A DNA stretch of 64,000 bases from Minisyncoccota bacterium (GTDB lineage Bacteria; Patescibacteriota; Minisyncoccia; Phycocordibacterales; SW-6-46-9). The stretch covers positions 226,292 to 290,291 of the forward strand of contig JBBDRP010000002.1 in assembly GCA_040905385.1 (NCBI GenBank). Direction: 5' to 3'. Shown here piece by piece: positions 1-53,244 of this stretch. Position 1 is the first letter of the stretch; each line of letters begins with the position of its first letter. A program made the translations under genes and the position numbers. The notes beneath the pieces are model-generated. The model had not been told where the DNA came from. It saw only the letters and a list, made by a program, of their open reading frames with translations, and did not search any database.

Positions 1-1351
1 GTTCTGTGACTCCGCTAATGATCCAGATGAGTCGCGACCAAACATGAATGTCTGTCCGGTGTGTATGGGGCACCCGGGCACGCTGCCGGTGATTAATAAA
101 GAAGCTGTTCGACAGGTTCTCCGAGTCGGTACGGCGGTCGGTGGAGAGGTAGCCGACTACACCGAGTTTGATCGTAAGAATTACTACTACCCAGATTTAC
201 CAAAAGGGTACCAGATTAGCCAGTATGAGTATCCGTTGATATCTGGTGGAGATCTGGCCGGTGTAGAACTTACACGCATTCATCTCGAAGAGGATACAGG
301 AACCAATATTCATAAGGATGGTCACAGTGTTGTTAATTATAATCGCGCCGGAATTCCACTGATGGAGCTGGTGACTGAACCGGTAATTCATACGGCTGAG
401 GATGCCAAGCAGTTTGCAAAAGAGCTACAACTGCTGCTGCGTACACTCGGTGCGAGTGAAGCTAATCTAGAGAAAGGGGAGATGCGGATTGAGGCAAATA
501 TATCGGTTGCTCCAGAAGGAGCAGACGAGCTGGGTACGAAGGTAGAGGTCAAGAACCTCAACTCATTCCAGGTGGTGTACGACGCAATTGAGTATGAAAT
601 AAAGCGCCAAAGTGAGGCTTTAGATAGCGATGAGGAGCTGGTACAGGAGACTCGTGGCTGGGACGAGAATACAGGGAAGACGGTATCTCAGCGCGTAAAG
701 GAGAGCTCGGATGACTATCGCTACTTTCCAGATCCAGATCTGCCGAAGCTTGTACTCAGTGATATTCCTGAATTCTCTGAGGAGAAAATTTCTGATTCGC
801 TACCTGAGCTTCCTGATACAATTCGCGCACGTCTAGCCGAAAAAGGAGTTGGAGATGATGATATTGATACGCTGCTCCAACGGTCTGATCTGCGCGAGCT
901 TTTTGATACAACTGTTGACAGGACAGGCGATGACGACGAGAAGATTCGACTGGCCGTCAACTACATCACGTCAGATCTAATCGGTCTGGAGCGAGAGCAT
1001 AACGGACAGCAGGAGATAATGTCAGAGAATTTTGCTCACCTGATTGAGATGATTGCTGATGACGATCTGTCTTCACGTGGAGGAAAGGATACGCTGGCAA
1101 TCATGTTTGCTGATGGCGGTGATCCAGATGAGATTGCCAAGAAGCAAGGGCTCCTGCAAAAAAGCAGTAAGGAGGATTTACAGCCGGTCGTTGATGAGAT
1201 TATCACCGAAAACAAATCAGTGGCGGAAGATTATCGATCAGGAGACGAGTCTGTCATTCAGTTTATGATCGGACAAGGGATGAAGAAGACGGGTGGATCA
1301 GCAAATCCGCAGGTCCTGAAACAGCTGTTGGAAGAGACCTTGAAGCAGTAG
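1..1351 (+). CDS. gatB: Asp-tRNA(Asn)/Glu-tRNA(Gln) amidotransferase subunit B, 5' truncated at the window edge; the frame is open from position 2
   Basis: Translation ...NMNVCPVCMGHPGTLPVINKEAV...YYYPDLPKGYQISQ...ETRGWDE... matches conserved GatB motifs. The reading frame runs to the window start. Confidence 0.9.
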   Translation, partial: FCDSANDPDESRPNMNVCPVCMGHPGTLPVINKEAVRQVLRVGTAVGGEVADYTEFDRKNYYYPDLPKGYQISQYEYPLISGGDLAGVELTRIHLEEDTGTNIHKDGHSVVNYNRAGIPLMELVTEPVIHTAEDAKQFAKELQLLLRTLGASEANLEKGEMRIEANISVAPEGADELGTKVEVKNLNSFQVVYDAIEYEIKRQSEALDSDEELVQETRGWDENTGKTVSQRVKESSDDYRYFPDPDLPKLVLSDIPEFSEEKISDSLPELPDTIRARLAEKGVGDDDIDTLLQRSDLRELFDTTVDRTGDDDEKIRLAVNYITSDLIGLEREHNGQQEIMSENFAHLIEMIADDDLSSRGGKDTLAIMFADGGDPDEIAKKQGLLQKSSKEDLQPVVDEIITENKSVAEDYRSGDESVIQFMIGQGMKKTGGSANPQVLKQLLEETLKQ

Positions 1352-2137
1352 CGGTAGGTAATGCGGTAGCTAATAAAGCCCTTTTAGATAGGCATATTAT
1401 ATGAACTGGTAGCTAAATGACTTCTCGTTAAAGCGGGGGTCATTTTGCTTATTATTACAACCTCTAGGAAGATAAGAATATTCGTAAATTCAGAATGTTC
1501 GATCTTTCAGTTACTCTCTAGAATAAAGGTTAGTAAATCCTACTCATGAATTCTGTATAGCGATTAGATAGTGGAGGATAGTAAAAATTAGTTAAATTTT
1601 GGAAAAATAATAAAATCACTGGAGAATAATCTAAAATTTAATCTGGTATCAGCATTATTCGTATAATAAATGTTTAAAATTGCCAAAAATAAAAAATGAG
1701 TATGAATGTGAAATATCTAAATTATAATTATTTTTCTACGTAATTCTTTAAAATATTTACTGCCATAAAATGGTAAATTAACCTACCAAATACATCATAT
1801 TTACCTACCAATGAGCCTTATCTGGGCCATCGACATCAGCTGTCTGCTTACCGGGATTCAAGTATGAGGTTATTTCCTCTAAATTTCATCACTCGGTAAT
1901 GTCAATCTATTAACCCTTACATTCATAATTGGTAGGTACCTTATTTAAGTTGTTTTCGGATATTTTAATTACGGTAGGTATCTAGCTATCGCCTGAGAAA
2001 CATCTATCCTAGAACACTGTAAAATACCCCTCATATCGGCATGACGTGGTGAGTTTTGATTCAAATAATAGGTCTATTACTAGTCATATCGTGTCTCGTT
2101 TGTCCGAGAATCATGTGGATAAGATCGGGCTCAAATA

Positions 2138-5100
2138 TTGTACTATGAATGGCACATGGACGATCAACTGAATTTTGAAAATCAAACCCTTATCACCACG
2201 AACCTGGCGGCAGAGTTGACCGGGTACTCCTCAGACTACATTGGTCAGCTGGCTCGTGATGGTGGTGTTGCCTCGAAGAAAATTGCTGGTCGACGTTTTG
2301 TTGATCGCGATGAGCTGATTGCATATGCTGATGAGAATAAGAAAAGTTTTTCAATTGCTCAATTGCCTGCAGAGCATCGTCCTATATCTGACGAACCAGA
2401 ACCTGTCGAGTCATCGGCAGAGTCAAGCTCTGCACCGGAGGAAACAATAGCGACTGATGAGCAAGCGGACAACGTTGATCAGTCTGTTCCGGAAACTCCT
2501 GCGCCTGATAGTCTGAAAACGCTAGACGATGAGAATTCTGGACTGACCGTCTCTACCGATGAGATCTCTCAAAATAGAGCGTCATCACGATGGCGACTGA
2601 CGCGTGATAAGCACCGCTCGGGTGGTGGCGAGGTTGCGAAGACCTCGGTTTCTCGTTTGCCAGCGATTGCTATGTCACTGATGCTCGTTGCTTCAATTGG
2701 GATTATGTCCTTTGGCATGATTGGTTCGGGCTCTGCATCTGACGCTGGCCAGCATCGAACCTCGGACGATACTCAGTCGGTTGACCAAATAGCTGCATCA
2801 GTCGAGGCTGGATTGCTCGATACATCGGTTCGTTCAGCTGATGCTAAAGAGAAAAGCATTCTAACCTCATCGGTTGACGCGATGTCCTACTCGGTCAAGC
2901 TAGCAGCTGCCGCAGCCGGCACATCACTGAACACGTACGTTTTCCGTCCAGTCCGTAATCTTCTTTCCGATACAATCTACACCGGACTGGCCGGAATACT
3001 GAGGTTTGGTGAAGTCTTCCTCCCTGACTACTTTGGTGATTACTCAGCCGAGTTTGTGCTGAATGATGACGGTGATATTGAGATTGATCGTCAGCGAGCT
3101 GATGAGCAGATGGTGGCAATTACTCGTATCCAGAATCGAAGTCTCAGTGATCGGGTAATCATTACCGCTCTTACGCAGTTGACTGGAGTGACGGCACAGC
3201 TGGCCGAACGTATCGAGGATCCTGAAGCGACTGGTGGTGTCGCCTCACGTGATTTTGTACGTGACCGTATTGATCAGTTGCGGGACATTATGCATGGCAA
3301 CCTAGACTCCTTAATGGATGCTGTTGAGTACGATCACCCGAATGATATCGAGTTGACGACGGCGGATATTGGTACGACCACTTCCGGGGTTCTTGAGGTT
3401 ACCGGACAGACAACATTATCGCAGACACTCATAAACGGTCCGCTTTCGGTAATTGCACCAAACAGCACAAGTTCTAATACGTTGTTTGTGGATACAGCCA
3501 GTGGTCGTGTCGGTATTAATACTGATACACCGCAGTACACGTTGGATGTGAACGGCACCTTTAGAGCTGATTCATTTATCTCTAACTCCACCACTACGGC
3601 GGTTAACTTTACGGCCTCTTCGACTGACACGAATACTCTAACAGCCGACACTGCTACCATCACTGTTCTAACTGTTGGTGATCTTACCGCCACCAGCTCG
3701 GCTGATCTAGCCACGACAACCATTACAGATTTGTCGGCCTCTTCGACCGACACAGATTCGTTGACTGCTGATGATGTAGTAATTACTAATTCCACGACCA
3801 CTAATTCATACATTCAGCAGCTACTTGCTGATAATTCTACGACTACGAATGCGTACGTGACTTCTTTGGTAGCATCATCATCTAACCTCACCAGTGCCCA
3901 GATCGAGGATCTGATTGCCACCAACTCGACAACGACTAATTCTTACATTCAGAATCTCTTGAACGATAATACCACCACAACCAACGCCTACATCACCAAC
4001 CTGATTGCGGAGGACATCACAGTCACTAATGCAACAACGACTAATTCTTACATCCAGCAATTACTAGCCGATAATTCTACGACTACGAATGCGTACGTTA
4101 CCTCACTAGTGGCATCATCATCTGATCTCACCAGTGCCCAGATTGAGGACTTAATCGCGACGAACTCCACTACAACCAACGCCTACATCCAGAAACTTTT
4201 GGTTGATAACTCAACCACTACGAACGCCTTTATTACCTCTCTGGTAGCGGATAACCTGACGGCAACTAGCGGCACCATCACAAATCTCGTAGCTACAGAT
4301 TCGACCACAACCAATGCCTACATCACGAATCTGCTGGCTGACAATTCGACTTCGTCGAATCTTTATTCATCTTCGCTCATTGCAGGCAGTGGAGACATCA
4401 CTGACTTCACCGCTGAGAACGCAACGATTACAAACGCCACCACCACCAACTTCTTTGCGACCCTGGCCAACTTCACCACCGCCTTCTTTGATAACCTCAC
4501 GGCCACCATCGCCGACATTACTAATCTAGAGGTGGACAATGCAACAACGACGAACTTGGTGGCAGTACAGTCCACCACAACCGACGCGTATATTCAGAAT
4601 CTTCTGGCTGACCAGTCGACAACCACAAACTTGACCGTTACAGGCGACACCATACTCGGCAACACAGCATTGGATACGTTGACGGTTAATGCCACTGTTG
4701 AGACCGACCTGGTGCCAAACTCTAACGCTACACTGAATCTCGGTTCTCCATCCTTCTACTGGAACATTGCGTATCTGGATACGATTAATGCCAACAACAT
4801 ATCTGCGGCCTCGACCTCTATCTCTGGAACGCAGGCAGAAAGCTTTACGCTTAATACTGATAATAGTACGCAGGATGGTGAAGATTCAGAGCTAATTTTC
4901 TACCGCGGTCAGGTAACACCGAATGCGGTGATTCAATGGGATTCGGTAGCAGATCGCTTTGATTTCAATCAGTCTCTATATATAAACAATGAATCAGCGT
5001 CGACAACCAATCCGACCTTGGTGGCTGAAGGGGTGATTGGGCAGACGGCTGATCTTTTCCAGCTGGCTTCATCGTCTGGCGACACACTTTTCTCGGTTGG

Positions 5101-8100
5101 GGCGGATGGGTCTGTTGATCTAATTTCGGCTTCAGCTACTGACTTTACTGCTACCAACGCCACTACGACGAACTTCTTCGCAAGCCTCGCCAACTTCACC
5201 ACTGCCTTCTTTGATAACCTCACGGCCACCATCGCGAGTATTACAAACCTCGAGGTCGACAACGCCACGACTACCAACCTAGTTGCCACAGACGCTACGA
5301 CAACTAACCTAACGGCTAGTGGACAGACCGATCTGGCCACAACAAGTGTGACTGGTAATCTGGATGTGAATTCTGGTAGTTTGAGAATAAGCGATTCAGG
5401 ACGCGCTGGGTTTGAGATAGAAAATACTGGCGCGTCATTTACTAATTCATTTATCACTGGAGGAATCGGTAATCCAAAGTTGTTTGCTAACTGGACGTTG
5501 GATGATGAACCAAGCGATGACACAAAGCCAACCTGGGGAACCAAGCTTGCTATCGATCAAGATAGGTTTGAGATTATTCGACTACCGGCCGGAATTGGTG
5601 GTGATTCTGGAACCGGACAGTTGATGGTTGTTGACGCTGCAGGTCAAGTTGGCATTGGTACCTCAACTCCAATCGTTTCTTTAGATATTAATCACACCGA
5701 TGCAGTGCGGCTGCCGGTGGGTACCTCTGCTCAGCGACCAAGTGGTGAGTCAGGATACATCCGCTATAACAGCGATACTGCTCAGTTTGAAGGTTTTTAT
5801 GCTGGAGCGTGGCAGGGCCTGGGTGGTGTCATTGATGTCGACCAGGACACCTACATCACCGCCGAGGAAAGTACCGACGATGATCACCTGCGCTTCTACA
5901 CGGCTGGATCTGAGCAGATGACCATTACTGCTGCGGGTGATGTTGGAATCGGAACAGATAACCCAGCCGAGCGGCTTGAGGTGGCTGGCAGTGGTGGTAC
6001 TCGATTCCTGGTGTCTGATGACACTGGTTACGCCGCTTTCCGATTGGATGCTGCCAGTGGTGAGACGTCGGCCCTTGACTTTGCTCAGGCCGGAACTAAC
6101 ATCTGGGGCTTGGGTATGAAGCAGCAGTCTGGCAATGATGACTTCTGGATCTGGGATGCTCCGTCCGGAGACACACCACGATTTGTTATCGATGCCGTGA
6201 GTGGTGATGTTGGTATCGGCACCACGTCACCAGCCAACACTCTGGATGTAGACGGTGGTATTGATGCCGACACGCTTAATACTGGGCAGGGAGACAACGA
6301 ACTGTACGCGATGGATCAGGATGTTCAGATGACAGATGACGTTACGTTCGCATCGGTAGATACCGCCACCATTACAACCGACAGTTTCTCAGCTACCTCC
6401 GCAGACTTTGTTGACCTGACGGCTGATAACGCCACTACAACCAACTTCTTTGCCTCACTCGCCAACTTCACAACGGCAATCTTTGATAACCTCACGGCCA
6501 CCATCGCCACGATTACGAACCTAGAGGTGGACAATGCAACGACCACGAACCTGGTAGCAACTGATGCAACAACTACCAACCTGACCGCTACTGGACAGAC
6601 GGACTTGGCAACGACGACCGTTACCGGTGATTTCACGGTTAATACAGATAATCTGTATGTAGATGAATCAACTGGCGTTGTCGGGATAGGTATCAATAGC
6701 CCGTCTAGCTATAGCGATAATGTGCTTGATCTTGGTGGTGGTCTAGCATTTGATGGTCAGACAATGTTTAGAAGGTTGGGAAATGATTTTGAGATTGGTG
6801 ACATGCACTCTGGGGATGGTAATATTCATAATCTTTACTTCTTTACTAACGGTAATAGTAATACCGATTTGTCTATTATTGAAAGCGGTAACATTGGTAT
6901 CGCAACACGTACACCGGCTGTATCGTTGGATATAAATGCCACCGATGCAGTGCGGCTGCCGGTTGGTACCTCAGCAGAGCGCCCAAGCGGTGAGGCTGGA
7001 TTCATTCGCTACAACAGCGAAAACAGTCAATTCGAAGGTTTCTATGCCGGGGCGTGGCAGGGCTTAGGCGGTGTCATTGATGTCGACCAGGACACCTACA
7101 TTACCGCCGAGGAAAGCTCGGATGAAGATTACCTGCGCTTCTATACGGCTGGCTCTGAGCGGATGACGGTGACTAATACGGGTGAAGTAGGTATTGGTAC
7201 TACCAGTCCAGAAAATATTTTATCTATAGATACTTCAAATACGAATGATGACGGAATCAGTTTATATGAAAATGGGAATCCGCTTGCTTTTATTGGAGAT
7301 TCATCAGCTTCATTTTCCACAGGGGTCTTGAGGTTGTATTACGAGAATTCTGAAAGAGTTAGAATCAATTCTTCCGGAGATAGTTACTTTAACGGTGGAG
7401 ATATTGGAATTGGCGTTTCAAGTCCAGATGAGTTATTACACGTAGACGGAGATTCAGCAGAGTCTTACATTAAGGTGAGTACTGCATCAGGAGATAAGGC
7501 TGGTATTAAATTTATTGAAGGTTCATCAGATTTATGGACCCTTTATCACGAAAATACCAGTAACTCCTTTAGTGTAAATGAAGATGGAACAGATTATCTG
7601 AGGATAATAAGTGGCGGTAACGTTGGCATCGGTACCACCTCGCCCGCTACAACCCTTGACGTCGCTGGTACCACCACAGCCCAGGCCTTCTCCGTCGGCG
7701 GTGACACCATCAATGACTTCACCGGCCAAGGCTTGAGTGTGGCCAATAACATTTTGAACCTTGATGATGTAGAGACACTCGGCACCTCACTCACCGCCGG
7801 ATCCGTTGTCTTTAGTGATGGCTCAAGCCTGACCGAAGACAATACCAACTTCTTCTGGGATGATGCAAATGACAGGTTGGGAATTGGGACAAATAGTCCA
7901 ACGAGCCCACTTCATATTATTGATTCTGGATTTACACTTGCTGAATTTACTCGTGATTCTACAGCTGGGGCAGGATTTACTCTTAGTAATAATACTGACA
8001 GTATCAACTTTGGACTTGGAGCTGGCGGAGAATTTTTTGCTGGTATTTCTGGTGGTACTGATAATTTCTTTGCAGCAAGTTCAACTACTTTTCAGGTTGG

Positions 8101-11100
8101 CTCTAATTCACGGATTGGATTTACGAGTGGTACAAGCCCAACAGAAAGTAATGTAGACACCAGTCTTTTCCGTAACGCTGCAAATGTATTACGGACCAAC
8201 GATTCATTTATTGTTGATGGAAGTATCGGTATTGGCACGACATCACCAGCTTCCGAGCTTGATGTTTGGGGTGACTTCCGCGCTGGTACCAGCTCGACGC
8301 CGACGTTATTTTCAGATGCATCGACCGGGCGAGTTGGAATTGGAACGTCGAGTCCGGACCATAAACTCACTATTCGCGAAGATACCCCCAACTCTACTTT
8401 TGGTCTACACCTCGACGGTGCAGGTTCCGCCGAACCCACTATTTCCTTTGAAGAGAATGGTGAGGGTGAGAATTTCTTCCTCCGGTATAGTGGGCCTGAT
8501 AACAAATTTTATCTGGGGCGGGGAGTAATACCTGGTTTCTTCAGTCAAGAAGCTATAAGAATGACTATTGAGCGGAATAGCGGTAGAGTCGGAATCGGGA
8601 CGACGAATCCAGCTAGTACTCTTGACGTGGCCGGTACCACCACCGCGCAGGCTTTCTCGGTCGGTGGTGATATCATTAATGACTTTACTGGCACTGGCCT
8701 GAGTGTGGCCGCTAATGTGCTGAACGTTACGCTGAGTCCGTTTAGTACTGATGACCTCTCTGAAGGATCAAATCTGTACTTCACCGATCAGCGAGCGCGC
8801 GATGTCTTTTCTACCGATGCGACGGGACTTACCTACAGCGCGGCTTCGGGAGTACTGAGTCTCACCACCGGTTACAACATTCCACTGACAGCCAGCACCA
8901 CTGACTGGCAGAGCTTTTACGAGACACCGAGTACCCGCATTACCGCCGGTACTGGTCTGAGCTGGAGTGCCAACACGTTGAATACGAATGATATCGAGAC
9001 GCTGACCACCTCCTTCACCGCCGGATCCATCATCTTTAGCGATGGCACCAACCTCGCCCAGGACAATGCCAACTTCTTCTGGGATGATACGAATAATCGA
9101 CTCGGAATTGGGACTACTACACCATCCGCAATTCTGGAAATAGTGGGGGGTGGATCAACGCCGTACCTGCGTATCGGCTCCGGCGGTGGCGGTGCCTACG
9201 CCTTTGAGGTAGATGAGAATGACAAGGTGAGCGTCGGTACCGGCAATGACGATATCTACTTTAATACCTCGGGTGATACGCAGGTGGGTGTAGGAACCTC
9301 TTCGCCAATCTCTGACTTTACCGTTGTGGGTGATTCATACTTCCAGGGCGATGTCGAGGTTACTGGTACGACCAGCGTCGCTAGGTTCAGCGTCGCCACC
9401 GATACCATCACGGACATTACTGGTGACGGTTTGTCGGTGGTTTCGCAGGGCGGTGGAGGACTTGGGCTGACGGTGGATGATATAGAGACACTTTCAACCG
9501 GGCTTAGTGCCGGCTCTATCGTCTTTAGTGATGGCTTATTTCTAACAGAGGATAGCGACAACTTCTTCTGGGATGATGCTAGTAATCGACTCGGTATTGG
9601 GACTAGCAGTCCAAGCGAAACGCTTCAGGTTGCAGGAACCGCTTGGCTTCGCGGCTCAGGGACAACTAACGGATTACTTGTAAACTCAAGCGGAAACGTC
9701 GGCATCGGCACATTATCACCTACCACTACTTTGGAGGTCGCCGGCACCACGACCGCCCAGGCCTTCTCTGTCGGTGGCGATACCATCAATGATTTCACCG
9801 GCCAGGGGCTTTCGGTAGCTAACAATATTCTAAATCTTGATGATGTCGAGACCTTTAGTACCTCACTCTTGGCGGGCTCTGTCGTCTTCTCTGACGGATC
9901 AACATTGACCGAGGACAACGCCAACTTCTTCTGGGACGATGCGAACAATCGGCTGGGAATTGGTACCACCTCGCCAGCTTCCAAGCTGGATGTGTGGGGT
10001 GACTTCCGAGCTGGTACCAGTACGACACCGACGCTGTTTGCTGATACAGCGGCCAATCGAGTAGGGATTGGAACGGTGAGTCCGAGCCATAAACTCACTA
10101 TTCGCGAGGATGCCTCGAACGCTACTTTCGGTATGCACCTCGAAGGCGCAGGTTCTGCCGAACCTACTATTTCTTTTGAAGAGCAGGATGAGGGTGAGAA
10201 TTTTTTCCTCCGGTATAGTGGGGCTGATAATAACTTTTATCTGGGGCGGGGAGTCATACCTGGTTTTGCTAGTCAAGAAGCTATAAGAATGACTATTGAG
10301 CGGGACAGCGACAGAGTCGGTATAGGGACGACGAATCCAGCTAGTACTCTTGACGTGGCCGGAGATATCACCTCTAGCGGCGTTCTGGACATAAATGGTA
10401 CGGGGACCTCGACCTTTGAAGGTGGTATCGATATCGCTGGTTCGATTCTGCCGCGGTCCGACGCTGCCTACGACCTTGGATCTGCCAGCCTACAATGGCG
10501 CGATGTCTACATCAGTTCTGGATCCCTGTACATCGGTGGTCAGAAGGTGCTGGAAGAGGACGCGGATGGAGACATTAATATAACCGCTGACCCAGACCAG
10601 AATCTTAAGCTAACTGCGACCGGTACTGGTAGCGTACAGCTTGGTGCTACTGGCAGCGGAAGCACAAATGTGATAAGCGGAAACTTTGGTATCGGTATCG
10701 GCACCACATCACCTGCCACCACACTTGAGGTTGGTGGCACCGCAACCGTGAATGCGCTGGCGGTTGGTGGGGATACCATCAGTGACTTCACCGGTACAGG
10801 ACTGTCCGTAGCCAGCAATGTGCTGAACGTCTCTTTGGCGTCATTTAGCACAACAGACCTCGCTGAAGGCACAAATCTCTACTTCACCAATGAAAGAGCC
10901 GAGGATGCGGCCGGCGGCATGTTCTCCGGCAATACCGAGACGCTTATTACTGCCACGTATGAGGATGGAGACGGTACGGTTGATCTGGTAGTGGATAACA
11001 ACCTTGCCAACTACTCGAATGCCACCTCACTCTTCCTTGACGGTGTAACCGCTACTGGACTAGAGAAGTCAGGAACTGATGTGGCGCTTACCACCGGCTA

Positions 11101-13117
11101 CAACATTCCACTGACCGCCTCAACGACCGACTGGCAGAGCTTCTACGAGACCCCATCCAGTCGCGTTACCGCCGGCACCGGTCTCTCTTGGAGCACAAAT
11201 ACACTGAATGTAAATGATGTCGAGACGCTGACCACCAGTCTCACCGCCGGATCAATCATCTTTAGCAATGGCACCAACCTCGCCCAGGACAATGCGAACT
11301 TCTTCTGGGACAGTGCTAACAGTCGGCTGGGGATTGGCACCAACGGGCCATCCGCGTTGCTGGAGGTTGCGGCTACTGGCACTACACCGCGTTTCCGCGT
11401 CGAGTCGGCCACTAGTGGCGTCTACGCGCTGGATATTGATGGAGACGACATGGCCACCCTGGGTACCGGTAATGGCCACATCTTTCTGGATACCTCTGGC
11501 ACCACCAATGTAGGTGTGGGTACCTCGACCCCGGCGGTGGACTTCCAGGTCGAGGGAATTGTCCGCCAATCGAACGCGCTTAACTGTGACCTGGAGGCCA
11601 ATGCTAATGGTGATCTGATCTGTGCCGGTACATCTGACTTTAATCTGAAGACGAATATCTTTACCTACAATAGCACCAGCTCGCTGGCAAAGATTAATCA
11701 GCTGGAGGCGCAGACGTATAACTACACGCCGGAGGCGCAGCTGGGTGAGCGCAAGGAGATTGGATTTATTGCCCAGGATGTAGAGAAGATCTTCCCCGAG
11801 CTGGTGGGTGAAAGCAACGGCTACAAGTACATTCGCTACGACAAGCTGACGGTGATTCTGGCCGAGGCGGTCCAGGAGCTGGATGACAAGGTTATCGCGC
11901 TGCAAGCGCAGCAGGCGTCATCAACTGCATCCGGAGATGTGGCTGGTGATAGCGATGGTGCTACTACGTCGGGTACGGAGCAGGTGAATAATGATGACGC
12001 AGAAGAAACTACAGATGAAGCTGAGTCATCGGGAGATGACGAAGTCCCGTCTGAGGAGCAAAGCGACGAAAGCGGGGAAGAAGCATCCTCCAGTATGCTA
12101 GCAGCCGTTGGATCCTGGCTGACTGAGCGGAGGGTAGAGATTACCGACGGTATTGCCCGATTTGTCCGCGGAATCTTCAACTCGGTACGCACCAACCGAC
12201 TTATCGTCGACAACACTCGTGATGATGAAGAGGATGACGAGGATCTTGACCCAGCAGCTGGTACCGGGTTCATTGCTACTGGCGAGCGTTTGGCTGAGAT
12301 AGAGAATAATCAGGCGGCCACCAGCTCGCAGATTATCGTGACCTTTACCCGCGAGATTAATACCTCGTACTGGGTCGAGAAAGCCGAGGGCGCCTTCAGC
12401 GTTCACACCACCGATGATGTGGTGGCCACCACGACCTTTGACTACTTCATTATCGGGGTAGAGATGACCGAGGAGCAGGTGGCATCATCAAGCGCGGTGC
12501 TGCAATCGATCGAGGAGGATGAAGAAGACTCGGACGATGAGAACGGGGGAATGACGCCGATTGATGATGGTGGTGACGAGGAGAGTGGCGATACAGGCGG
12601 TGACAATACTGCCCAGGATGACAGTCAGACCGACTCGGCCGATGACACTGCCTCAACAACCAACGAAACGAACGCAAGTAGCAGTGACCCGTCGAGTGAC
12701 GAAGTGGGTGAGACTGAGGATGATCTGGATACAAGCACCACCACCGCCAGCAGCACACCAGACACGACCACACCGACCATTTCTGGCACCAGTGATGTGA
12801 TTCTTACTGAAGGTGACAGCTTTGATCTACTCGAAGGTGTAACCGCTGAAGATGATATTGATGGCGATATCACTAATAATATTACTGTTGATGAGGGCGG
12901 CTTTGATGCTAATGCTGTCGGTGAATACTTCATCACCTACACTGTCGCAGACCAAGCCGGCAATGAAGCAACAGCCGAACGCACCGTCGTGGTCGAGAAA
13001 GTAGAGGAGGAAGCCGACCCTGACCCTGTGGAGTCAGAAACCGATTCCACAGGGTCTTCAGAGGAAACGGATGAGACTGAGGAGACGGTTTCAACAGAAC
13101 CGACTGATGATGCGTAA
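2138..13117 (+). CDS. Giant (3659 aa) membrane-anchored surface protein. It has an N-terminal HTH-like segment, one TM helix, NSTTTNxYI and VGIGTxSP tail-fibre-like repeats, a Peptidase S74 (endosialidase chaperone) autoprocessing domain, an acidic linker, and a C-terminal DUF5011/Ig-like domain.
   Basis: Single uninterrupted ORF. TM helix LPAIAMSLMLVASIGIMSFGMIGSG at aa 174-197. Repeated VGIGTTSPASTLDV motifs (phage tail fibre repeat). DFNLKTNIFTYN...IGFIAQDVEKIFPELV...YDKLTVILAEAVQEL matches Peptidase_S74. ISGTSDVILTEGDSFDLLEGVTAEDDIDGDIT...TYTVADQAGNEATAERTVVV matches DUF5011. Confidence 0.85.
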   Translation: MYYEWHMDDQLNFENQTLITTNLAAELTGYSSDYIGQLARDGGVASKKIAGRRFVDRDELIAYADENKKSFSIAQLPAEHRPISDEPEPVESSAESSSAPEETIATDEQADNVDQSVPETPAPDSLKTLDDENSGLTVSTDEISQNRASSRWRLTRDKHRSGGGEVAKTSVSRLPAIAMSLMLVASIGIMSFGMIGSGSASDAGQHRTSDDTQSVDQIAASVEAGLLDTSVRSADAKEKSILTSSVDAMSYSVKLAAAAAGTSLNTYVFRPVRNLLSDTIYTGLAGILRFGEVFLPDYFGDYSAEFVLNDDGDIEIDRQRADEQMVAITRIQNRSLSDRVIITALTQLTGVTAQLAERIEDPEATGGVASRDFVRDRIDQLRDIMHGNLDSLMDAVEYDHPNDIELTTADIGTTTSGVLEVTGQTTLSQTLINGPLSVIAPNSTSSNTLFVDTASGRVGINTDTPQYTLDVNGTFRADSFISNSTTTAVNFTASSTDTNTLTADTATITVLTVGDLTATSSADLATTTITDLSASSTDTDSLTADDVVITNSTTTNSYIQQLLADNSTTTNAYVTSLVASSSNLTSAQIEDLIATNSTTTNSYIQNLLNDNTTTTNAYITNLIAEDITVTNATTTNSYIQQLLADNSTTTNAYVTSLVASSSDLTSAQIEDLIATNSTTTNAYIQKLLVDNSTTTNAFITSLVADNLTATSGTITNLVATDSTTTNAYITNLLADNSTSSNLYSSSLIAGSGDITDFTAENATITNATTTNFFATLANFTTAFFDNLTATIADITNLEVDNATTTNLVAVQSTTTDAYIQNLLADQSTTTNLTVTGDTILGNTALDTLTVNATVETDLVPNSNATLNLGSPSFYWNIAYLDTINANNISAASTSISGTQAESFTLNTDNSTQDGEDSELIFYRGQVTPNAVIQWDSVADRFDFNQSLYINNESASTTNPTLVAEGVIGQTADLFQLASSSGDTLFSVGADGSVDLISASATDFTATNATTTNFFASLANFTTAFFDNLTATIASITNLEVDNATTTNLVATDATTTNLTASGQTDLATTSVTGNLDVNSGSLRISDSGRAGFEIENTGASFTNSFITGGIGNPKLFANWTLDDEPSDDTKPTWGTKLAIDQDRFEIIRLPAGIGGDSGTGQLMVVDAAGQVGIGTSTPIVSLDINHTDAVRLPVGTSAQRPSGESGYIRYNSDTAQFEGFYAGAWQGLGGVIDVDQDTYITAEESTDDDHLRFYTAGSEQMTITAAGDVGIGTDNPAERLEVAGSGGTRFLVSDDTGYAAFRLDAASGETSALDFAQAGTNIWGLGMKQQSGNDDFWIWDAPSGDTPRFVIDAVSGDVGIGTTSPANTLDVDGGIDADTLNTGQGDNELYAMDQDVQMTDDVTFASVDTATITTDSFSATSADFVDLTADNATTTNFFASLANFTTAIFDNLTATIATITNLEVDNATTTNLVATDATTTNLTATGQTDLATTTVTGDFTVNTDNLYVDESTGVVGIGINSPSSYSDNVLDLGGGLAFDGQTMFRRLGNDFEIGDMHSGDGNIHNLYFFTNGNSNTDLSIIESGNIGIATRTPAVSLDINATDAVRLPVGTSAERPSGEAGFIRYNSENSQFEGFYAGAWQGLGGVIDVDQDTYITAEESSDEDYLRFYTAGSERMTVTNTGEVGIGTTSPENILSIDTSNTNDDGISLYENGNPLAFIGDSSASFSTGVLRLYYENSERVRINSSGDSYFNGGDIGIGVSSPDELLHVDGDSAESYIKVSTASGDKAGIKFIEGSSDLWTLYHENTSNSFSVNEDGTDYLRIISGGNVGIGTTSPATTLDVAGTTTAQAFSVGGDTINDFTGQGLSVANNILNLDDVETLGTSLTAGSVVFSDGSSLTEDNTNFFWDDANDRLGIGTNSPTSPLHIIDSGFTLAEFTRDSTAGAGFTLSNNTDSINFGLGAGGEFFAGISGGTDNFFAASSTTFQVGSNSRIGFTSGTSPTESNVDTSLFRNAANVLRTNDSFIVDGSIGIGTTSPASELDVWGDFRAGTSSTPTLFSDASTGRVGIGTSSPDHKLTIREDTPNSTFGLHLDGAGSAEPTISFEENGEGENFFLRYSGPDNKFYLGRGVIPGFFSQEAIRMTIERNSGRVGIGTTNPASTLDVAGTTTAQAFSVGGDIINDFTGTGLSVAANVLNVTLSPFSTDDLSEGSNLYFTDQRARDVFSTDATGLTYSAASGVLSLTTGYNIPLTASTTDWQSFYETPSTRITAGTGLSWSANTLNTNDIETLTTSFTAGSIIFSDGTNLAQDNANFFWDDTNNRLGIGTTTPSAILEIVGGGSTPYLRIGSGGGGAYAFEVDENDKVSVGTGNDDIYFNTSGDTQVGVGTSSPISDFTVVGDSYFQGDVEVTGTTSVARFSVATDTITDITGDGLSVVSQGGGGLGLTVDDIETLSTGLSAGSIVFSDGLFLTEDSDNFFWDDASNRLGIGTSSPSETLQVAGTAWLRGSGTTNGLLVNSSGNVGIGTLSPTTTLEVAGTTTAQAFSVGGDTINDFTGQGLSVANNILNLDDVETFSTSLLAGSVVFSDGSTLTEDNANFFWDDANNRLGIGTTSPASKLDVWGDFRAGTSTTPTLFADTAANRVGIGTVSPSHKLTIREDASNATFGMHLEGAGSAEPTISFEEQDEGENFFLRYSGADNNFYLGRGVIPGFASQEAIRMTIERDSDRVGIGTTNPASTLDVAGDITSSGVLDINGTGTSTFEGGIDIAGSILPRSDAAYDLGSASLQWRDVYISSGSLYIGGQKVLEEDADGDINITADPDQNLKLTATGTGSVQLGATGSGSTNVISGNFGIGIGTTSPATTLEVGGTATVNALAVGGDTISDFTGTGLSVASNVLNVSLASFSTTDLAEGTNLYFTNERAEDAAGGMFSGNTETLITATYEDGDGTVDLVVDNNLANYSNATSLFLDGVTATGLEKSGTDVALTTGYNIPLTASTTDWQSFYETPSSRVTAGTGLSWSTNTLNVNDVETLTTSLTAGSIIFSNGTNLAQDNANFFWDSANSRLGIGTNGPSALLEVAATGTTPRFRVESATSGVYALDIDGDDMATLGTGNGHIFLDTSGTTNVGVGTSTPAVDFQVEGIVRQSNALNCDLEANANGDLICAGTSDFNLKTNIFTYNSTSSLAKINQLEAQTYNYTPEAQLGERKEIGFIAQDVEKIFPELVGESNGYKYIRYDKLTVILAEAVQELDDKVIALQAQQASSTASGDVAGDSDGATTSGTEQVNNDDAEETTDEAESSGDDEVPSEEQSDESGEEASSSMLAAVGSWLTERRVEITDGIARFVRGIFNSVRTNRLIVDNTRDDEEDDEDLDPAAGTGFIATGERLAEIENNQAATSSQIIVTFTREINTSYWVEKAEGAFSVHTTDDVVATTTFDYFIIGVEMTEEQVASSSAVLQSIEEDEEDSDDENGGMTPIDDGGDEESGDTGGDNTAQDDSQTDSADDTASTTNETNASSSDPSSDEVGETEDDLDTSTTTASSTPDTTTPTISGTSDVILTEGDSFDLLEGVTAEDDIDGDITNNITVDEGGFDANAVGEYFITYTVADQAGNEATAERTVVVEKVEEEADPDPVESETDSTGSSEETDETEETVSTEPTDDA
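7615..10345 (+). repeat. Intragenic segmental duplication inside giant gene 1. A ~0.65-1 kb protein-coding module appears twice with near-identical amino-acid sequence.
   Basis: aa stretch VGIGTTSPATTLDVAGTTTAQAFSVGGDTINDFTGQGLSVANNILNLDDVETL...FFWDDANDRLGIGT (nt ~7615-7880) recurs at nt ~9705-9965. The following SPASELDVWGDFRAGTS...GRGVIPGFFSQEAIRMTIER...STLDVAG (nt ~8240-8640) recurs at ~9975-10350. Confidence 0.8.
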
Positions 13118-13176: not shown

Positions 13177-16100
13177 ATGAGTACGAATTTTATACAATCG
13201 GTGAAAGGCTTTATTAGCGAGAATACGCGTCTGGCGGCGGTATTGTTGGTGGTCTTTTTGGCGCTGGTAACCTTGCTCGTGTTGGGGGTCAGCAGTATTC
13301 AGGCGACCTGGTACAGCGACACGAGTGGCAGCGGAACCTGGGACTATCGTCAGCGGATCATTATCGATAGCGACCAGGTTGACTCGAATCTGCAAGACTT
13401 TCCTGTTTACGTTGATCTTGTTGATCTCGGCAGCCAATTTTTTAGTAACGTCGCGGCCGACGGTGGTGATATTCGCGTGACCAATGCGGTTGGTGAGGAG
13501 CTGCCGCGAGAGGTTGTTTCCGTCGACACCGCCTCCTCGACGGGAGAGCTGCACTTCAAGGCCGATAATCTCTCCAGCACGGCGGACACGACCTTCTATA
13601 TTTATTATGGTAATGCTGATACAGGTAATTACGCCACCAGCAGCACGTACGGTGCCCAGAATGTTTGGACGAATAATGAGGCAGCAGTATGGCACCTTAA
13701 TGAAGATCCCAGCGGTACGGCACCGCAGATACTTGATAGCACCGTAAATAATATTCATGGAACCACTGGTGGCTCGATGACGAGTGCTGATTCTGTTCTT
13801 GGAAGACTTGGCAGGGCGCTTGATTTCGACGGTACTGATGATGATGTAGAAATTCCGGATAACATTTTAATAAACATAGCTGACTCATATGACCAGAAAA
13901 CTCAAACAGTATGGTTCAAGGCTGATGAGGTAACTAGTCGGCAGGTCATCTGGGAGGAAGGTGGTTTTGCAAACGGTATAAATATATATGTAGATAGTGG
14001 TACATTGTACGGCCGAGCCTGGAGTGATAGCGAAAGCTGGTCAAAGGAGCTACAGGTAACAACCAGTGTGGCGGCAGATACGTGGTATCAGGTTTATCTG
14101 GTTCTTGATGCACCGAATGATTCACTTGAAATGTTTGTTAATGGTAGTTCAGTGGGGACGGATAATAAGACAGACGGTAATTTTCATAGTGGTCACGGTA
14201 ACGATATTGGTATTGGTAAAGTACAGGGAGATACGAGAACCCACGTAGGAGATGAAGTAGGTTTAGAATTTAACGGTGTTATTGATGAAGTTAGGCATAT
14301 CAATGAAGATCTGCGTTCTGCCGACTGGATCGCCGCCGAATACACCAACCAAAACGCACCAAATACCTTCTACACCGCTGGCAGCCAGGAAACGCAAAGC
14401 TCATCCAACGTGCCGTTTGGTGACAACCCGGGTGGTGACTTTGCCGACGGGGACTGGGACTTCCGCGAGAAGATTACCATCCACGCTGATCAGGTTGATG
14501 CGAACCTTTCCGACTTTCCGGTGTATGTCGACCTGGCTGATATGAGTGTCAGCTTTTTCGCCAATACATCCGTTAACTGTGGTGATATACGTATGACCAA
14601 TGCTTCCGGTACCGAGCTGGCGCGCGAGGTGGTGGCGTGTGATACGTCAGCCGAGACCGGTGAGCTGCACTTCAAGGCTGACTCACTTTCCAGTACTACG
14701 GACACCGTTTTTTATATTTATTATGATAATCCAGATGCTCATGACTACGTAGTAGATGCCACGTATGGGGCGCAGAATGTCTGGACGAATAACCACGTTG
14801 GTGTGTGGCATCTGAATGAAAGCTCAGGAAACACTCTTGATTCAACATCAAATAATAATGACGCAACAACTAACGGCCCTATACAGGGAGTAGAGGGACA
14901 AGTTGGAGATGCTTACTCTTTTGATGGGGCGGATGACTACGTAGAAATCGATAATTTAATCGACGAAATCCCAAATACGTTTTCTGTCTGGGTAAAAGTA
15001 GCGACTGATGTTGGTGATGGAAGAATAGGAGTCATTGCAGGTAATTATCCTGGTGATGGTTCCGCTATAAATATTGAAGGATATTTCAATGGTGAGGTAA
15101 GGATGTATTGGAATGGCGGACAGGAAAATATAAGATACGAAACGGATATAAGAACTGGCGAATGGGAGCATTTGGTATTTGTGAGAGATGTAGCAGCTGA
15201 TGAGATCAGATTATACCGTAATGGTATTAATATACCGAAGACAAGTGATGCGGGAGATGACGTAACACTAGCAGACAACAATAATAAGTTCAGAATTGGT
15301 TCCGATCATCCGAGCGATAGAGAGCCTTTCGAAGGTGATATAGATAATCTTCATATCTATAACACTGATCTCTCTGAAGAAGAAATCTCCGCTATATACA
15401 ACAACCAGAACTCACCATCCACCTTCTACACCATCTCTGGCGGTGTTTCTGCAGCGCCGGTGCTGCTGACTCCAGAAGACACGTCCACTGAGGTGGTGCG
15501 CAACCCGACTCTGGACTGGGAGCCGGTACAAAACGCTGGTGAGTATCAGGTGCAGGTGTCGCCGACCTCGACCTTCTCATCCATCGTGGTGGATGCAGAT
15601 GTGAGCACCAGCGAGATAACCCTGGGCACGCCGTACCCATCACTGAATGCCAGCACGACCTATCACTGGCGCGTGCGGACGGTGGATGGGCAGGACTTCG
15701 GTACGTGGTCAACTGATTTCGAATTTACGACAGCGGCTGGTCTGGCCGGCAGCGGTACCGAGGCCGATCCGTACCTTGTCAGCACCCCACAGGATCTGGA
15801 TGATGTTCGCAATGATTTGACTGCTTATTACAGGCAGGAAAATGATATTGATCTTACTTTCGATACGCAGGATCCAGCGGGATTATTTTACAATTCAGGT
15901 CAAGGCTGGATTACGATTGATGATTTCGAGGGTGATTATGATCTCAATGGGTATTCTGTCCTGGGAATGTTTCAAGATAGGTCAGGTTTTTATAATCGAG
16001 GACTGTTTAGATTAATCAATGCAGGAACCTTACATGACGGCCACATTGATGGAGATATTACAGGAATTGATTCTAATACAGAGGGTTCAGGTGTTGCAGT

Positions 16101-19100
16101 AGCAACAATTGGTTCAACAGGAGGTGTTCATCGGGTTAAAACAACAGGAAGTGTAGTAGCACAGAGAACAGATTTCTTCGTAACAAATGCTGCTGGTATT
16201 ACAAGTAATAACAATGGAAGCATATCAGATTCTTATAATGAGGCAGTTATTAAACAGGGTCTTGATGAGGGAGAACCTACTAGATATGGTGGAATAGCTG
16301 GACAAAATACCTCAAATATTAATAGGGTTCTGAATACTGGAAATGTTATTGTAACAACAGCAACAAGTGTCGGAGCAGTTCGGGGTTTGGACTCTGCTGG
16401 AGATATATCTAATTCTTTTTATGATCAAGATGTCGTTGATGTCGATGACCCAGAAGCAACCGGATTAACCACTGCTAATGCACAGTCTTTATCAACGTAT
16501 GAAAATGCTGGTTGGGACATTGTCCCGATCGAGCATCACGACGGGCGGAAGTCGACGGCGACCTGGTACATCGACGACGGCAACGACTACCCGCGCCTGT
16601 GGTTCGAGTACGAGGGAGAGGGTTGGTACGACGACGGCTGGAGCCACCGCGAGAAGGTCACGATCAACGCCAGCGAGGTGGATGCGACGCTGGAAGACTT
16701 TCCGGTCTATGTTGACCTGGCTGATTTCGGCGCCACCTTTTTTGCCAATGTTGATGGCGACGGCGGCGACATCCGCGTCACCAAGGCGGACGGTACTACC
16801 GAGCTCCCGCGTGAAGTGGTATCAGTAGATACCGGCGGATCCTCCGGCGAGCTGCACTTCAAGGCCGACCGTCTCTCCAGCACCACCGACACGACCTTCT
16901 ACGTCTATTATGGCAATCCAGATGCGATAGATTATGTGACAGATTATGCGTATGGTGCTGAGAATGTGTGGACAAATGGAACGCAACTGGTATACCACCT
17001 GCAGGATGATCCATCTGGTACCGGTCCGCAGATAAATGACTCAACCAGCGGTGGGTATGATGGTACTGCAAGCTCCATGCAAAGCAGTGACAGTGTTACC
17101 GGAAAGGTTGGAAAAGCTCTAGCTTTTGATGGCACGAAGTATATCGATACGGGTACTGAGTATGTTGGAGATACCGGTTTATTCGCTGATGGTAATGAGA
17201 ATTTCACTGTCAGTATCTGGTCAAAAATTAATTCGGGTGATGAAGGTACCCTGATTGCTCGCGCTGGTGGCTCTTCAGGAAGTAGGACTTTTCAGCTTGT
17301 TTCGTGGCCATCAGGAAATGAAACGCCAGGATATTACCTACGTGGAGAGTTAACTGCAACTAATTTAGGCTTTGATGACGGAACCTGGCACCAGACGACA
17401 CTCGTTTGGAATGGTTCCCAAATGGATTATTATCTGGATGGTGAGTACATGAGTAGCCCGGCAGTTGGTACTGCCGCTGAAGAAATCGGTGAAGCCATCA
17501 TTCTCGGAGCCAGAACTGGTGGTTCTGGTTTTTTGCTCGAAGGTCTTCTTGACGAGCCACGTATCTGGGATCGTGCATTATCTCAGCATGAAGTATCTGC
17601 CGAATACACTAACCAAAATGATCCATCCACCTTTTACACCGTTGCTGGTACCGAGGACGTCATCACCATGGACGGCACCGGTACGGCGGGTAATCCGTAC
17701 CTCATTGAGACGCCACAGGATCTAGATGATGTTCGCAAAGACCTCAATGCCTACTACCAACTGGCCAATGATATCGACCTGACCTTTGATACGCAGAACG
17801 CGGACGGAGATTTCTATAATGGCGGCAGCGGATGGGATCCAATCGCCACGACGAGCGCTAATTCTTTTACTGGTAGCCTTGATTTCGAGGGATATAAAAT
17901 TAGTGGATTAATGATAAATAAGCCATCAGAAAATAATCAATCATTATTTGGCTTCACTGATGGAGTAGAGTTTAACGATGTTTGGATTGAGGCAGATATT
18001 ACAGGACGTTTCAGAGCAACTATACTGACCTCACTTAATACTGGTGTATCAGTTGTTAATGGCATTAAAGCCGAAGGTGTTATAACAGGAGAAGGCAGTT
18101 CAACTGCTGAAATAGGTATAGTTGTAGGGTATCACGAAGGAACTTTCACCGTAAATGATGCCTCTTTTGATGTTCAGATTAATAATCCAAACAATCTTAA
18201 ACGAGTGGGTGGAGCTGTTGGTCACAACTATTTTGCTGGGGATGAGTTTACTGTTAACAGAGGCTTAACGAGAGGGCTATATAACTTCGATACAACAGTT
18301 GATGATACAGATCCTTTTATTGGTAATAGAGGCGCTACGAGTGTTGTTAATGATAGTTTTATTGATAGTGAGACAAGTGGTTTTCCTGCAGTAGATATTG
18401 ATGATAATACTACCTCTCTTACCACTGCCGAGGCGCAGGATATCGATACGTACCTGGATGCTGGCTGGGACATTATTGATATATCTCAGCATGATGGGGA
18501 GCGTGCGACGGCCATCTGGTTTATAGACGACGGTAATGATTACCCGCGCCTATGGTTCGAGCGTGACGGGGTAGAGAGTACGAACTTTGGCGACAGTGCG
18601 GACGGTGACTTTGTCGACACCGACTGGGGCTATCGCGAAAAGATTACCATTAACGCCAGCGAGGTGGATGCAACGTTGACCGATTTTCCGGTCTATATCG
18701 ACCTGGCCGATCTCGATAGTGAGTTTTTCGACAACGTGAAAAGTGATGGTGGTGATATCCGCGTGACGGCTGCTGACGGTACAACCGAGCTGGCGCGCGA
18801 GGTTGTGTCCATAGATACAGCGGCCCAGACGGGTGAGTTACACTTCAAGGCGCCATCACTTTCGGCCTCGACTAATACCGAGTTCTACATCTATTTTGGT
18901 AACTCTAGCGCGGTGGATTACCAGGCCGGGGATACGTACGGACGCAATGCGATGTGGAGCAATGGCTACAAGTCCGTCTACCACATGCAGGAAGATCCGT
19001 CCAGGACGGCACCACAGATAATCGACTCAACCGGTGGTGACAAGGCGACCAGTAGTGGGGCAATGACTATCGATGACAGTGTTTCTGGCCAGCTGGCTGG

Positions 19101-30886: not shown

Positions 30887-31033
30887 CTCTTGTCTCTTGG
30901 ATGTGAAATGCTCTGATATATGTGATTTTGCTACAATGCATAGGAATCGCAGGTGTGGATAGTAAAACCTGTACCTCTGTTATACTAAAGGAGTAGCTTT
31001 TTTTAACTAACTCTTTATATGATGTAAGCCTAT

Positions 31034-49886: not shown

Positions 49887-50210
49887 TGCCGAACATTTGC
49901 CAGAAGAGAAGTAGCGGCTGCCAGTTTTAGTACATGATTATGCAAAAGTTTATTATTCGAGCACGTAAAGGCCTTATTTTTAGCTACAATAAATAGCACA
50001 CAAAACTGTGGATAAGTCTACTTGACTCTGTATACCGTTTTGCTAATATATGTGTACGGGCAAAGACAGAGACATTAAAAATCAAAGTTGAGTCGGTACT
50101 TACGACAACCGCATCACTACGATGCATACACCATACACACCCACTCAACACACACATTTTTAACTCACTCTCAATCTTTCCCACACAACACATATTCATT
50201 TCATTTATAA

Positions 50211-53197: not shown

Positions 53198-53244
53198 CGA
53201 TGACCGGGGAGTGCTTATTTACCACCTAACACACAGTCACTGAT

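Follow-up and report, generated by a model that had tools for sequence, protein, structure and literature searches.

The window analysed here is a stretch of 64,000 nucleotides from a Minisyncoccota bacterium (assembly GCA_040905385.1, contig JBBDRP010000002.1, positions 226,292 to 290,291 of the forward strand). Near its start lies a gene for a giant protein, for which we consider one explanation fairly probable: a type II (N-terminus inside), membrane-anchored, very long and probably trimeric adhesive fibre of a Patescibacteria (candidate phyla radiation, CPR) cell, related to the phage-tail-fibre-like surface "mosaic adhesive trimers" (MAT; PMC10769870) of the predatory Bdellovibrio bacteriovorus, which recognises its prey by such fibres. 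A preceding sequence-only reading had proposed a cell-anchored, phage-tailspike-like fibre with a Peptidase S74 domain and a helix-turn-helix (HTH)-like N-terminus. This was largely supported: the two checks it had named, an alignment of the S74 catalytic dyad and a fold search with the N-terminus, were run and both came out in its favour, and its coordinates were all correct to within a few bases.

According to the proposed mechanism, residues 1-68 would fold in the cytoplasm as an excisionase/MerR-type winged HTH, as profile and model indicate, and a single helix would anchor the chain with its N-terminus inside, as judged from hydropathy and charge. About 3,460 residues would be exported. 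By homology, the S74 domain would trimerise through its C-terminal helix, template the folding of the upstream beta-helical fibre and cut the chain at T3159|S3160 using Ser3160 and Lys3165, a dyad that is present in the protein together with the fold. The cut would release an acidic fragment of 494 amino acids and expose the fibre tip. The fibre probably attaches to a host cell or surface, as suggested by MAT fibres and by the epibiotic lifestyle of cultivated Patescibacteria.

When the list of open reading frames (ORFs) and their translations was inspected, positions 2138..13117 of the forward strand were found to form one unbroken frame of 3,659 codons counted from a TTG, as the sequence-only reading had it, and an ORF of such length cannot be explained by chance. 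The ATG at 2156 appears the likelier start, because residues M1-D2 align with the first residues of the closest relative, P0001; all residues are numbered from this ATG. The internal DNA repeats of the gene share only 71-84 % identity and are therefore old duplications, and an assembly artefact was rejected on the same figure. Self-BLASTP of the protein listed no internal repeat pairs, and the DNA repeats were used instead. NCBIfam gave no match on the giant protein.

The fibre body was analysed by motif counting and by sequence comparison. The protein contains 13 N[AS]TTTN and 20 G[IV]G[TI] motifs, which confirms the NSTTTN(A/S)YI and VGIGTxSP-type repeats read earlier. The Thr/Asn-rich repeat region, which is 41-48 % identical to repeats of L005, includes a 240-nt tandem duplication at 3762-4241, and further NSTTTNAYI-type copies are found near aa 1000-1040 and 1425-1465. 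When aa 1210-1395 (186 aa) were compared with the PDB sequences, only four structures matched, all of them Bdellovibrio MAT fibres: Bd2133 (8ond, E-value 6.8e-9), Bd1334 (8oml, 1.3e-6), Bd3182 (8ojn, 1.9e-6) and Bd2439 (8ol4, 2.1e-5). The alignments fall on GxVGIGTxxPxxxLxV motifs. With the whole protein as query, Ig-like domains matched the tail and Bd3182 (8ojn) matched aa 1242-1370. In the PHROGs database, phrog_9942 ("tail fiber protein") matched five stretches (E-value 6.6e-22), so that the phage-fibre-like nature claimed from the letters alone is borne out by both PHROG and MAT matches. Nothing was found by Pfam in the fibre segments. Judged by sequence, the fibre body is homologous to the Bdellovibrio MAT trimeric beta-helix fibres and to phage tail-fibre families. 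Among the family members themselves, similarity of the fibre bodies is patchy (25-57 % identity in scattered modules). Bd3182 has 922 aa and measures ~550 A (PMC10769870); by extrapolation, ~2,700 fibre residues could span a length on the order of 100-200 nm.

The S74 domain, which the sequence-only reading had located near nt 11631-11915, was matched by Pfam Peptidase_S74 (PF13884) at aa 3160-3217 (nt 11633-11806) with an E-value of 3.6e-15 and 56.4 bits against a cut-off of 22. The stretch S3160-D-F-N-L-K3165 aligns with SDERLK of the solved tail fibre 8jov, with S587/K592 of MyRF (MYRF), and with the Ser-to-Ala-mutated motif (A)DLRAK in 7dc3. The Ser-Lys dyad is thus intact, and in the alignment obtained by homology search both residues are invariant in all 54 S74 relatives. 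In an AlphaFold2 (AF2) monomer model of aa 3130-3653, the S74 part reached a predicted local distance difference test (pLDDT) score of 89-97, with a helix at model residues 99-131. Foldseek matched this model to the intramolecular chaperone autoprocessing (ICA) domain of MyRF, 7dc3 (E-value 5.9e-6, prob 1.0, TM(target) 0.62-0.68).

In MyRF, S587 and K592 are the equivalents of the catalytic dyad S911/K916 of endoNF, an alanine mutant of either MyRF residue abolishes cleavage, and the chain is cut between P586 and S587 (PMC8326128). Because Ser3160 aligns with MyRF S587 and endoNF S911, self-cleavage of the giant protein is predicted at T3159|S3160. Since the cut lies on the N-terminal side of the serine, the released piece would be aa 3160-3653 and would comprise S74, two acidic linkers, a small conserved segment and an Ig-like domain. 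The earlier claim that the acidic and Ig-like part would be set free therefore stands as a prediction, but S74 itself would go along with it. The sole two cysteines of the giant protein, C3144 (11585-11587) and C3156 (11621-11623), lie 16 and 4 residues before the predicted cleavage serine, and a cysteine 1-3 residues before the serine is also found in P0002, P0017, P0018 and P0036. A disulphide at the fibre tip is possible.

The last ~450 residues (aa 3201-3653) are strongly acidic and D/E-rich, in agreement with the acidic low-complexity linker described earlier. The DUF5011 Ig-like domain was recovered as Pfam Bact_surface_Ig-like PF16403 at aa 3541-3613 (E-value 5.9e-16), with a PDB sequence match to 2kpn (8.9e-10), a pLDDT of 79-89 in the AF2 model and Foldseek matches to 2kpn and 4hmc. 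The post-S74 segment (aa 3314-3437) is modelled with low confidence and has no Pfam match; it is common to P0018 (E-value 4.8e-4) and L041, where it reads KITDGIASF. Separately, the 550-aa relative P0002 was observed to carry tandem S74 domains (CTSDARLKTNI and CSSDLRLKTNI) with a short GIGT segment between them, followed by PF16403.

The N-terminal domain is an excisionase/MerR-type winged HTH, a conclusion drawn from the profile of the family together with AlphaFold modelling and the fold search. In the window protein, Pfam HTH_17 (PF12728) matched aa 13-61 with an E-value of 0.0083 and 16.8 bits (cut-off 27), and TIGR01764 gave 15.6 (cut-off 28.8), while four relatives exceeded the HTH_17 cut-off (P0123, 38.6 bits; P0163, 37.7; L047, 29.5; P0121, 28.0). 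When an alignment of relatives was supplied to AF2, aa 11-60 were modelled with a pLDDT of 91-93 and the topology b-b-H-H-b-b-H. The best Foldseek matches in the PDB were RacA, mycobacteriophage Xis, CarH, BldC, TraN, GlnR and the RdfS excisionase (prob 0.97-1.0, rmsd 1.4-2.5 A). E-values were only 0.06-0.3, which is usual for a domain of 60 residues. The HTH-like N-terminus proposed earlier thus passed the fold check, its closest structures being of the excisionase/MerR class.

The membrane topology proposed by the sequence-only reading was likewise recovered. Only one Kyte-Doolittle window in 3,653 aa exceeded 1.6, and it corresponds to the transmembrane (TM) helix at aa 168-192. The flanks of this helix carry a net charge of +6 over the 27 residues before it and -5 over the 33 residues after it, and the N-terminus is therefore inside. 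There is no N-terminal signal peptide; the chain begins with the HTH, continues with an acidic linker (net charge of -16 over aa 63-140) and reaches the TM helix at aa 168. The juxtamembrane region (aa 193-440) has no significant Pfam match and was not common to the relatives in BLASTP.

A DNA-binding-like domain on the inner side of a surface fibre had been flagged as unexpected. The domain is present, but far from being peculiar to this protein, it marks a large Patescibacteria HTH-TM family. When the N-terminal 420 aa were used as query, one relative was retrieved, P0001, which has HTH, linker, TM and GIGT fibre in the same arrangement. When one genome per species was scanned and the shared peptide YSSDYIGQ was required, 37 loci were obtained. 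Patescibacteria labels were attached to 31 of them, including Saccharibacteria, Parcubacteria, Zambryskibacteria, Nomurabacteria and Falkowbacteria. The other six (L009, L014, L017, L020, L021 and L022) are of a small HTH-TM subtype and come from metagenome-assembled genomes labelled "uncultured Gammaproteobacteria"; either the family reaches beyond Patescibacteria or these labels are wrong. Nearly every ORF of the 37 loci has the HTH at its N-terminus and one TM 70-270 residues in, and the ectodomains range from almost none (proteins of 127-180 aa) to more than 1,900 aa.

An exhaustive search with the HTH family profile returned 8,088 cluster representatives with E-values of 1e-3 or lower, 5,432 of them at 1e-10 or lower. 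Among the best 150 of the 8,088 members, a tandem pair of HTHs is present in 140 and a single TM in 144; the median length of the 150 is 326 aa and most ectodomains span 40-140 aa. The recognition-helix residues Y24, D27, Y28, Q31 and R34 are invariant in an alignment of matches that was free of the exact-peptide requirement, and family HTH copies have a median net charge of +3 per 48 aa. No dedicated Pfam or NCBIfam model exists for the family, which is matched only by the generic HTH_17 and "excise" models.

In 21 of the 37 genome loci the immediate neighbour of the HTH-TM gene is gatB, in either the same or the divergent orientation, and the same adjacency was seen in the metagenome loci L040, L041/42, L043/44 and L046, which brings the gatB-linked loci besides the window to more than 25. 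No functional reason for this adjacency is apparent. Because gatB adjoins the relatives just as it adjoins the giant gene, a gene conserved among Patescibacteria has its positional orthologue in the giant gene, whose outside part is expanded. One metagenome locus beside gatB, L041, encodes a complete 2,589-aa protein with two HTHs, a TM, a GIGT fibre, an S74-like domain (S-T-R-E-E-K, with the Ser and Lys spacing retained) and PF16403. Since L041 repeats the plan of HTH, TM, fibre, S74 and Ig-like domain, the window protein is not the only one built in this way. P0121, a positional orthologue of 1,692 aa, consists of head and fibre and had no PDB sequence match. No S74 was found within 10 kb downstream in the 37 genome loci, where most long genes are incomplete. 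At aa 2085-2154 of L041 a weak match to Peptidase_G2, the phi29-type autochaperone, was noted (E-value 0.0037), and a similar "...ALE(A/P)FSS" segment occurs at aa ~1330-1450 of P0121; both proteins may carry a Peptidase_G2-like domain, perhaps an alternative intramolecular chaperone for members without S74.

A split version of the arrangement was observed in ten small-subtype loci, in which a ~140-aa HTH-TM gene is followed 3-50 bp on by a same-strand ORF of 646 to more than 2,000 aa. Each of the seven loci inspected (listed in the table) has an N-terminal TM of its own in this ORF, and four of the five large ORFs scanned have Pfam matches to fn3, DUF2341 or PF16403. Because the HTH-TM head is fused to large surface proteins in some genomes and adjacent to them in others, it probably works with them; the head is a lineage-wide module dedicated to membrane or surface proteins, either fused or encoded immediately upstream.

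The region upstream of the family genes contains a shared element. A k-mer screen of the 250 bp upstream yielded TGTGGATAA/TTATCCACA and TTGTCCACA, and 31 of 45 loci, the window included, have T[AG]TCCACA in the 400 bp ahead of the HTH gene. Its density is 2.0 per kb upstream of HTH genes, 0.37 in other intergenic DNA and 0.04 in coding DNA of the same loci; the resulting ~5-fold enrichment over other intergenic DNA is not an independent figure, as the motif was found and counted on the same loci. In gatB-linked genes it lies mostly 50-66 nt ahead of the start codon. The window has two more intergenic copies, at 30954-30962 (before a GT4 gene) and 50007-50015 (after an M48 peptidase gene), both ~16-17 nt downstream of TACAAT boxes. 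We take the motif to be the classical DnaA box, of which TTATCCACA is the E. coli form and TTGTCCACA the actinobacterial one. Regulation by DnaA would be the simplest reading of the element; alternatively, it may be the binding site of the HTH itself, a possibility that is attractive because the recognition helix is invariant.

Most likely the head binds a conserved cytoplasmic partner. DNA as that partner would fit the basic charge of most family copies and the upstream TT(A/G)TCCACA element; by analogy with RodZ and MreB, the partner may alternatively be a protein. An unlikely alternative makes the giant protein a membrane-tethered transcription factor or contact sensor (ToxR/CadC-like or MYRF-like), whose fibre senses host contact or oligomerisation and whose HTH, active while tethered or after intramembrane proteolysis, regulates genes including its own through TT(A/G)TCCACA. 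The bitopic layout of HTH, TM and ectodomain agrees with it, as do the high conservation of the recognition helix across the phylum and the DNA-bound regulators among the best fold matches. The motif is moreover found upstream of 31 of 45 family genes and at two other window promoters (30954 and 50007), and small HTH-TM genes stand directly upstream of large surface-protein genes, as regulators often do. However, S74 and HTH lie on opposite sides of the membrane, so that the HTH cannot be set loose by cleavage in the manner of MYRF (PMC8326128), and MYRF-like release was rejected on this ground. Most family ectodomains are only 40-140 aa long and lack a sensor-like domain, neither a site-2 protease nor a partner was found in the neighbourhood of the gene, the window HTH is not basic, and a motif that equals the DnaA box has a simpler binder in DnaA.

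A second alternative concerns the far end of the chain. If S74 were solely a trimerisation and folding module, with the chain uncut or the fragment staying bound, the Ig-like domain would form an adhesive tip. We regard this as rather unlikely. The order of S74, conserved segment and PF16403 recurs in P0002, P0018, P0036 and L041, which suggests a functional tail; in L041 the conserved Asp beside the serine is replaced by Thr, and the tandem S74 domains of P0002 are hard to explain if every S74 is a discarded terminal cap. Yet Ser and Lys are intact here and in 54 of 54 relatives, all S74 domains tested so far (endoNF, MyRF and Bd3182) self-cleave, and the long disordered acidic linkers (pLDDT below 50) show no sign of a stable attachment to the fibre.

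Several observations weigh against the cleaved adhesive fibre that we prefer. About 390 residues, including the conserved Ig-like domain, follow an S74 domain that is terminal in phages, and the retention of the Ig-like tail in P0002, P0018, P0036 and L041 is hard to square with its being discarded. The tip predicted after the cut is a short Cys-containing stretch with no recognisable binding domain, and S74 is optional in the family, as it is absent from P0121. At the other end, the window HTH has a net charge of 0, compared with the family median of +3, and scores below the Pfam HTH_17 cut-off, while the upstream motif of the window is in the orientation opposite to that of most relatives and at a different position. 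Trimerisation, cleavage, surface exposure and binding were all inferred, and the structure model is monomeric.

A further extension of the fibre reading strikes us as quite doubtful, namely that the HTH-TM head is a Patescibacteria-specific membrane-tethered DNA-binding device that recognises TT(A/G)TCCACA and couples genes or the chromosome to the sites of fibre insertion. If this were true, the head could aid co-transcriptional export or act as a contact- or oligomerisation-sensing regulator, S74-driven trimerisation outside would cluster three HTHs inside, and a new kind of transmembrane link would run from a host-contacting fibre to DNA.

That the gene is a phage or prophage tail-fibre gene or remnant is highly improbable: S74, the PHROG similarity and the database name of relatives ("tail fiber domain-containing protein") point that way, but virions do not feature an N-terminal HTH and a TM anchor, gatB keeps its place beside the family genes across Patescibacteria, and the gene is flanked by housekeeping genes, none of them of phage type. 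The GYSSDYIGQ pattern had zero matches in 2.9 million viral contigs. A prophage origin was rejected on flanks, synteny and viral contigs.

The surroundings of the giant gene are those of an ordinary cellular chromosome. Other genes of the window encode glycogen-type enzymes, RNase J, GroEL, ribonucleotide reductase and tRNAs. Between gatB and the giant gene (1352-2155) lies an 800-bp AT-rich non-coding gap, unusually long for a small genome, in which no ORF longer than 41 aa and no Rfam match were found. Downstream, two giants with LamG/DUF2341 domains form a 28-kb surface-protein island together with the fibre gene. At 51863-57819, the ribonucleotide reductase (RNR) genes encode an ATP-cone-bearing small chain, a large chain in an ORF of 558 aa and, in an ORF of its own, a 775-aa protein in which ATP-cone, RNR_Alpha and class-II insertion domains were recognised; these represent either two RNR classes or one split large subunit.

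Table 1 Features of the giant gene and its protein, neighbouring genes in the window, and the split-version loci inspected (window coordinates except for the last seven rows, which are given in the coordinates of the named locus)
Feature	Position	Strand	Residues, basis or remarks
gatB	44..1351	+	Pfam GatB_N and GatB_Yqey; upstream neighbour of giant gene
TGTGGATAA, reverse complement of DnaA-box consensus TTATCCACA	2114..2122	+	42 nt upstream of ATG
Giant gene	2156..13117	+	3,653 aa from ATG 2156; alternative TTG start 2138; stop codon 13115-13117
Cytoplasmic winged HTH, excisionase/MerR type	2156..2359	+	aa 1-68; recognition helix with family motif GYSSDYIGQLxR
Acidic Ser/Pro/Glu-rich cytoplasmic linker	2360..2575	+	aa 69-140; composition; low pLDDT at its start
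Basic stretch ahead of TM helix	2576..2656	+	aa 141-167, net +6; positive-inside rule
Single TM helix, signal-anchor, N-terminus inside	2657..2731	+	aa 168-192
Juxtamembrane extracellular region	2732..3475	+	aa 193-440; no recognisable family
Thr/Asn-rich 15-residue repeat region, NSTTTNAYI type	3593..4645	+	motif positions
Module aa 894-953	4835..5014	+	50 % identity to positional orthologue P0121, BLASTP E-value 5.6e-13
Fibre body, mosaic repeats with GxVGIGTxxPxxxL loops	5603..11545	+	aa ~1150-3130
Sole two cysteines, C3144 and C3156	11585..11623	+	just ahead of predicted cut
Predicted autocleavage site, T3159-Ser3160 bond	11630..11635	+	homology to MyRF P586/S587 cut
Peptidase_S74 intramolecular chaperone / autoprocessing domain	11633..11947	+	aa 3160-3264, including long C-terminal helix
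Acidic low-complexity linker 1	11948..12094	+	sequence; pLDDT below 50
Post-S74 segment EITDGIARF and small beta-rich region	12095..12466	+	aa 3314-3437
Acidic low-complexity linker 2	12467..12775	+	composition; pLDDT below 50
Bacterial surface Ig-like domain (PF16403 / DUF5011)	12776..12994	+	aa 3541-3613
Acidic C-terminal tail	12995..13114	+	composition
Giant surface protein 2	13177-19737		2,186 aa; short N-terminus, TM, many LamG/DUF2341 domains
226-aa ORF between giants 2 and 3	19823-20503		weak IS200-like Y1 transposase match, E-value 5e-4
Giant surface protein 3	20728-30423		3,231 aa; short N-terminus, TM, many LamG/DUF2341 domains
Split-version locus L017	10494-14978		
Split-version locus L022	5386-11211		
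Split-version locus L029	10308-16895		
Split-version locus L032	10421-15346		
Split-version locus L035	10459-16596		
Split-version locus L037	5513-9025		
Split-version locus L028	10415-12421		

Cultivated Patescibacteria live attached to other microbes, and to our knowledge their host recognition is largely unknown beyond type IV pili. The giant protein and its relatives are candidate host-recognition fibres built on the principle of phage and Bdellovibrio fibres, and exchangeable bodies and tips would make host range testable. The HTH-TM head represents an undescribed phylum-wide family of thousands of members with a DNA-binding-type domain on the inner membrane face. It could be used to track down surface proteins in Patescibacteria genomes, and it may hint at a connection of the envelope with the chromosome or cell cycle. 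In the literature searched on Patescibacteria, we found no description of the HTH-TM-fibre family or of DnaA boxes. Nor did the literature searched describe an S74 fibre and a cytoplasmic HTH in one protein, an HTH-TM family that spans the phylum, is linked to gatB and occurs fused to giant surface proteins or split from them, or cargo placed behind S74. S74-bearing bacterial cell fibres (MAT) and bitopic proteins with a cytoplasmic HTH (RodZ, ToxR/CadC) are already known.

When the protein was compared with known systems, each was found to share part of its plan. RodZ and ToxR/CadC have a cytoplasmic N-terminal HTH, one TM and an extracytoplasmic C-terminal part, which is the topology seen here. 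Their HTH classes differ (XRE-type in RodZ, OmpR-type winged helix in ToxR/CadC, HTH_17 type here), their ectodomains are unrelated, and no sequence relationship to them was found. RacA, Xis, BldC and the other best structural matches of the HTH are soluble and only 11-22 % identical to it; the motif GY(S/T)xDY(I/V)GQLxR is specific to the Patescibacteria group, unlike in RacA, Xis and BldC. The tandem HTH duplication that is common in the HTH-TM family has a counterpart in the two-HTH protein TraN.

MYRF combines a DNA-binding-type domain, a TM and S74 in one chain, as does the giant protein, and its structure 7dc3 is the best structural match of the S74 domain. MYRF, however, is a eukaryotic transcription factor with the order DNA-binding domain (DBD), ICA and TM, in which both domains are cytosolic and cleavage frees the DBD, whereas here the HTH (aa 1-68) is followed by the TM (168-192), the fibre and an S74 domain (3160-3264) that lies outside. 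The DBD types are unrelated, being Ndt80-like in MYRF and excisionase/MerR-like in the giant protein. The phage proteins endosialidase K1F endoNF and T5 pb1 belong to the same S74 domain family, with Ser and Lys five residues apart and a long C-terminal helix. They are virion parts with S74 at the extreme C-terminus and no membrane anchor, while the giant protein is chromosomal, membrane-anchored and carries cargo behind S74.

Thirteen of the MAT fibres of B. bacteriovorus end in S74 with SDxxxK and eight do not; a V-G-G/N-x-x-x-P-x-x-x-L capping loop recurs among them, self-cleavage of S74 was demonstrated at S782 of Bd3182, and each of them has a signal peptide followed by a conserved, beta-rich N-terminal domain of 130 aa (PMC10769870). 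The giant protein has the HTH and TM in place of this signal peptide and N-domain (the MAT N-domain was compared by description only), is ~4 times longer, and belongs to a different host phylum and envelope type. S74 is terminal in MAT, whereas ~390 residues follow it in the giant protein. Both are cell-encoded, have a phage-tail-fibre-like mosaic body with VG(I)GxxxPxxxL loops and an S74 domain with SDxxxK, belong to families that include members with and without S74, and occur in bacteria that live on other bacteria.

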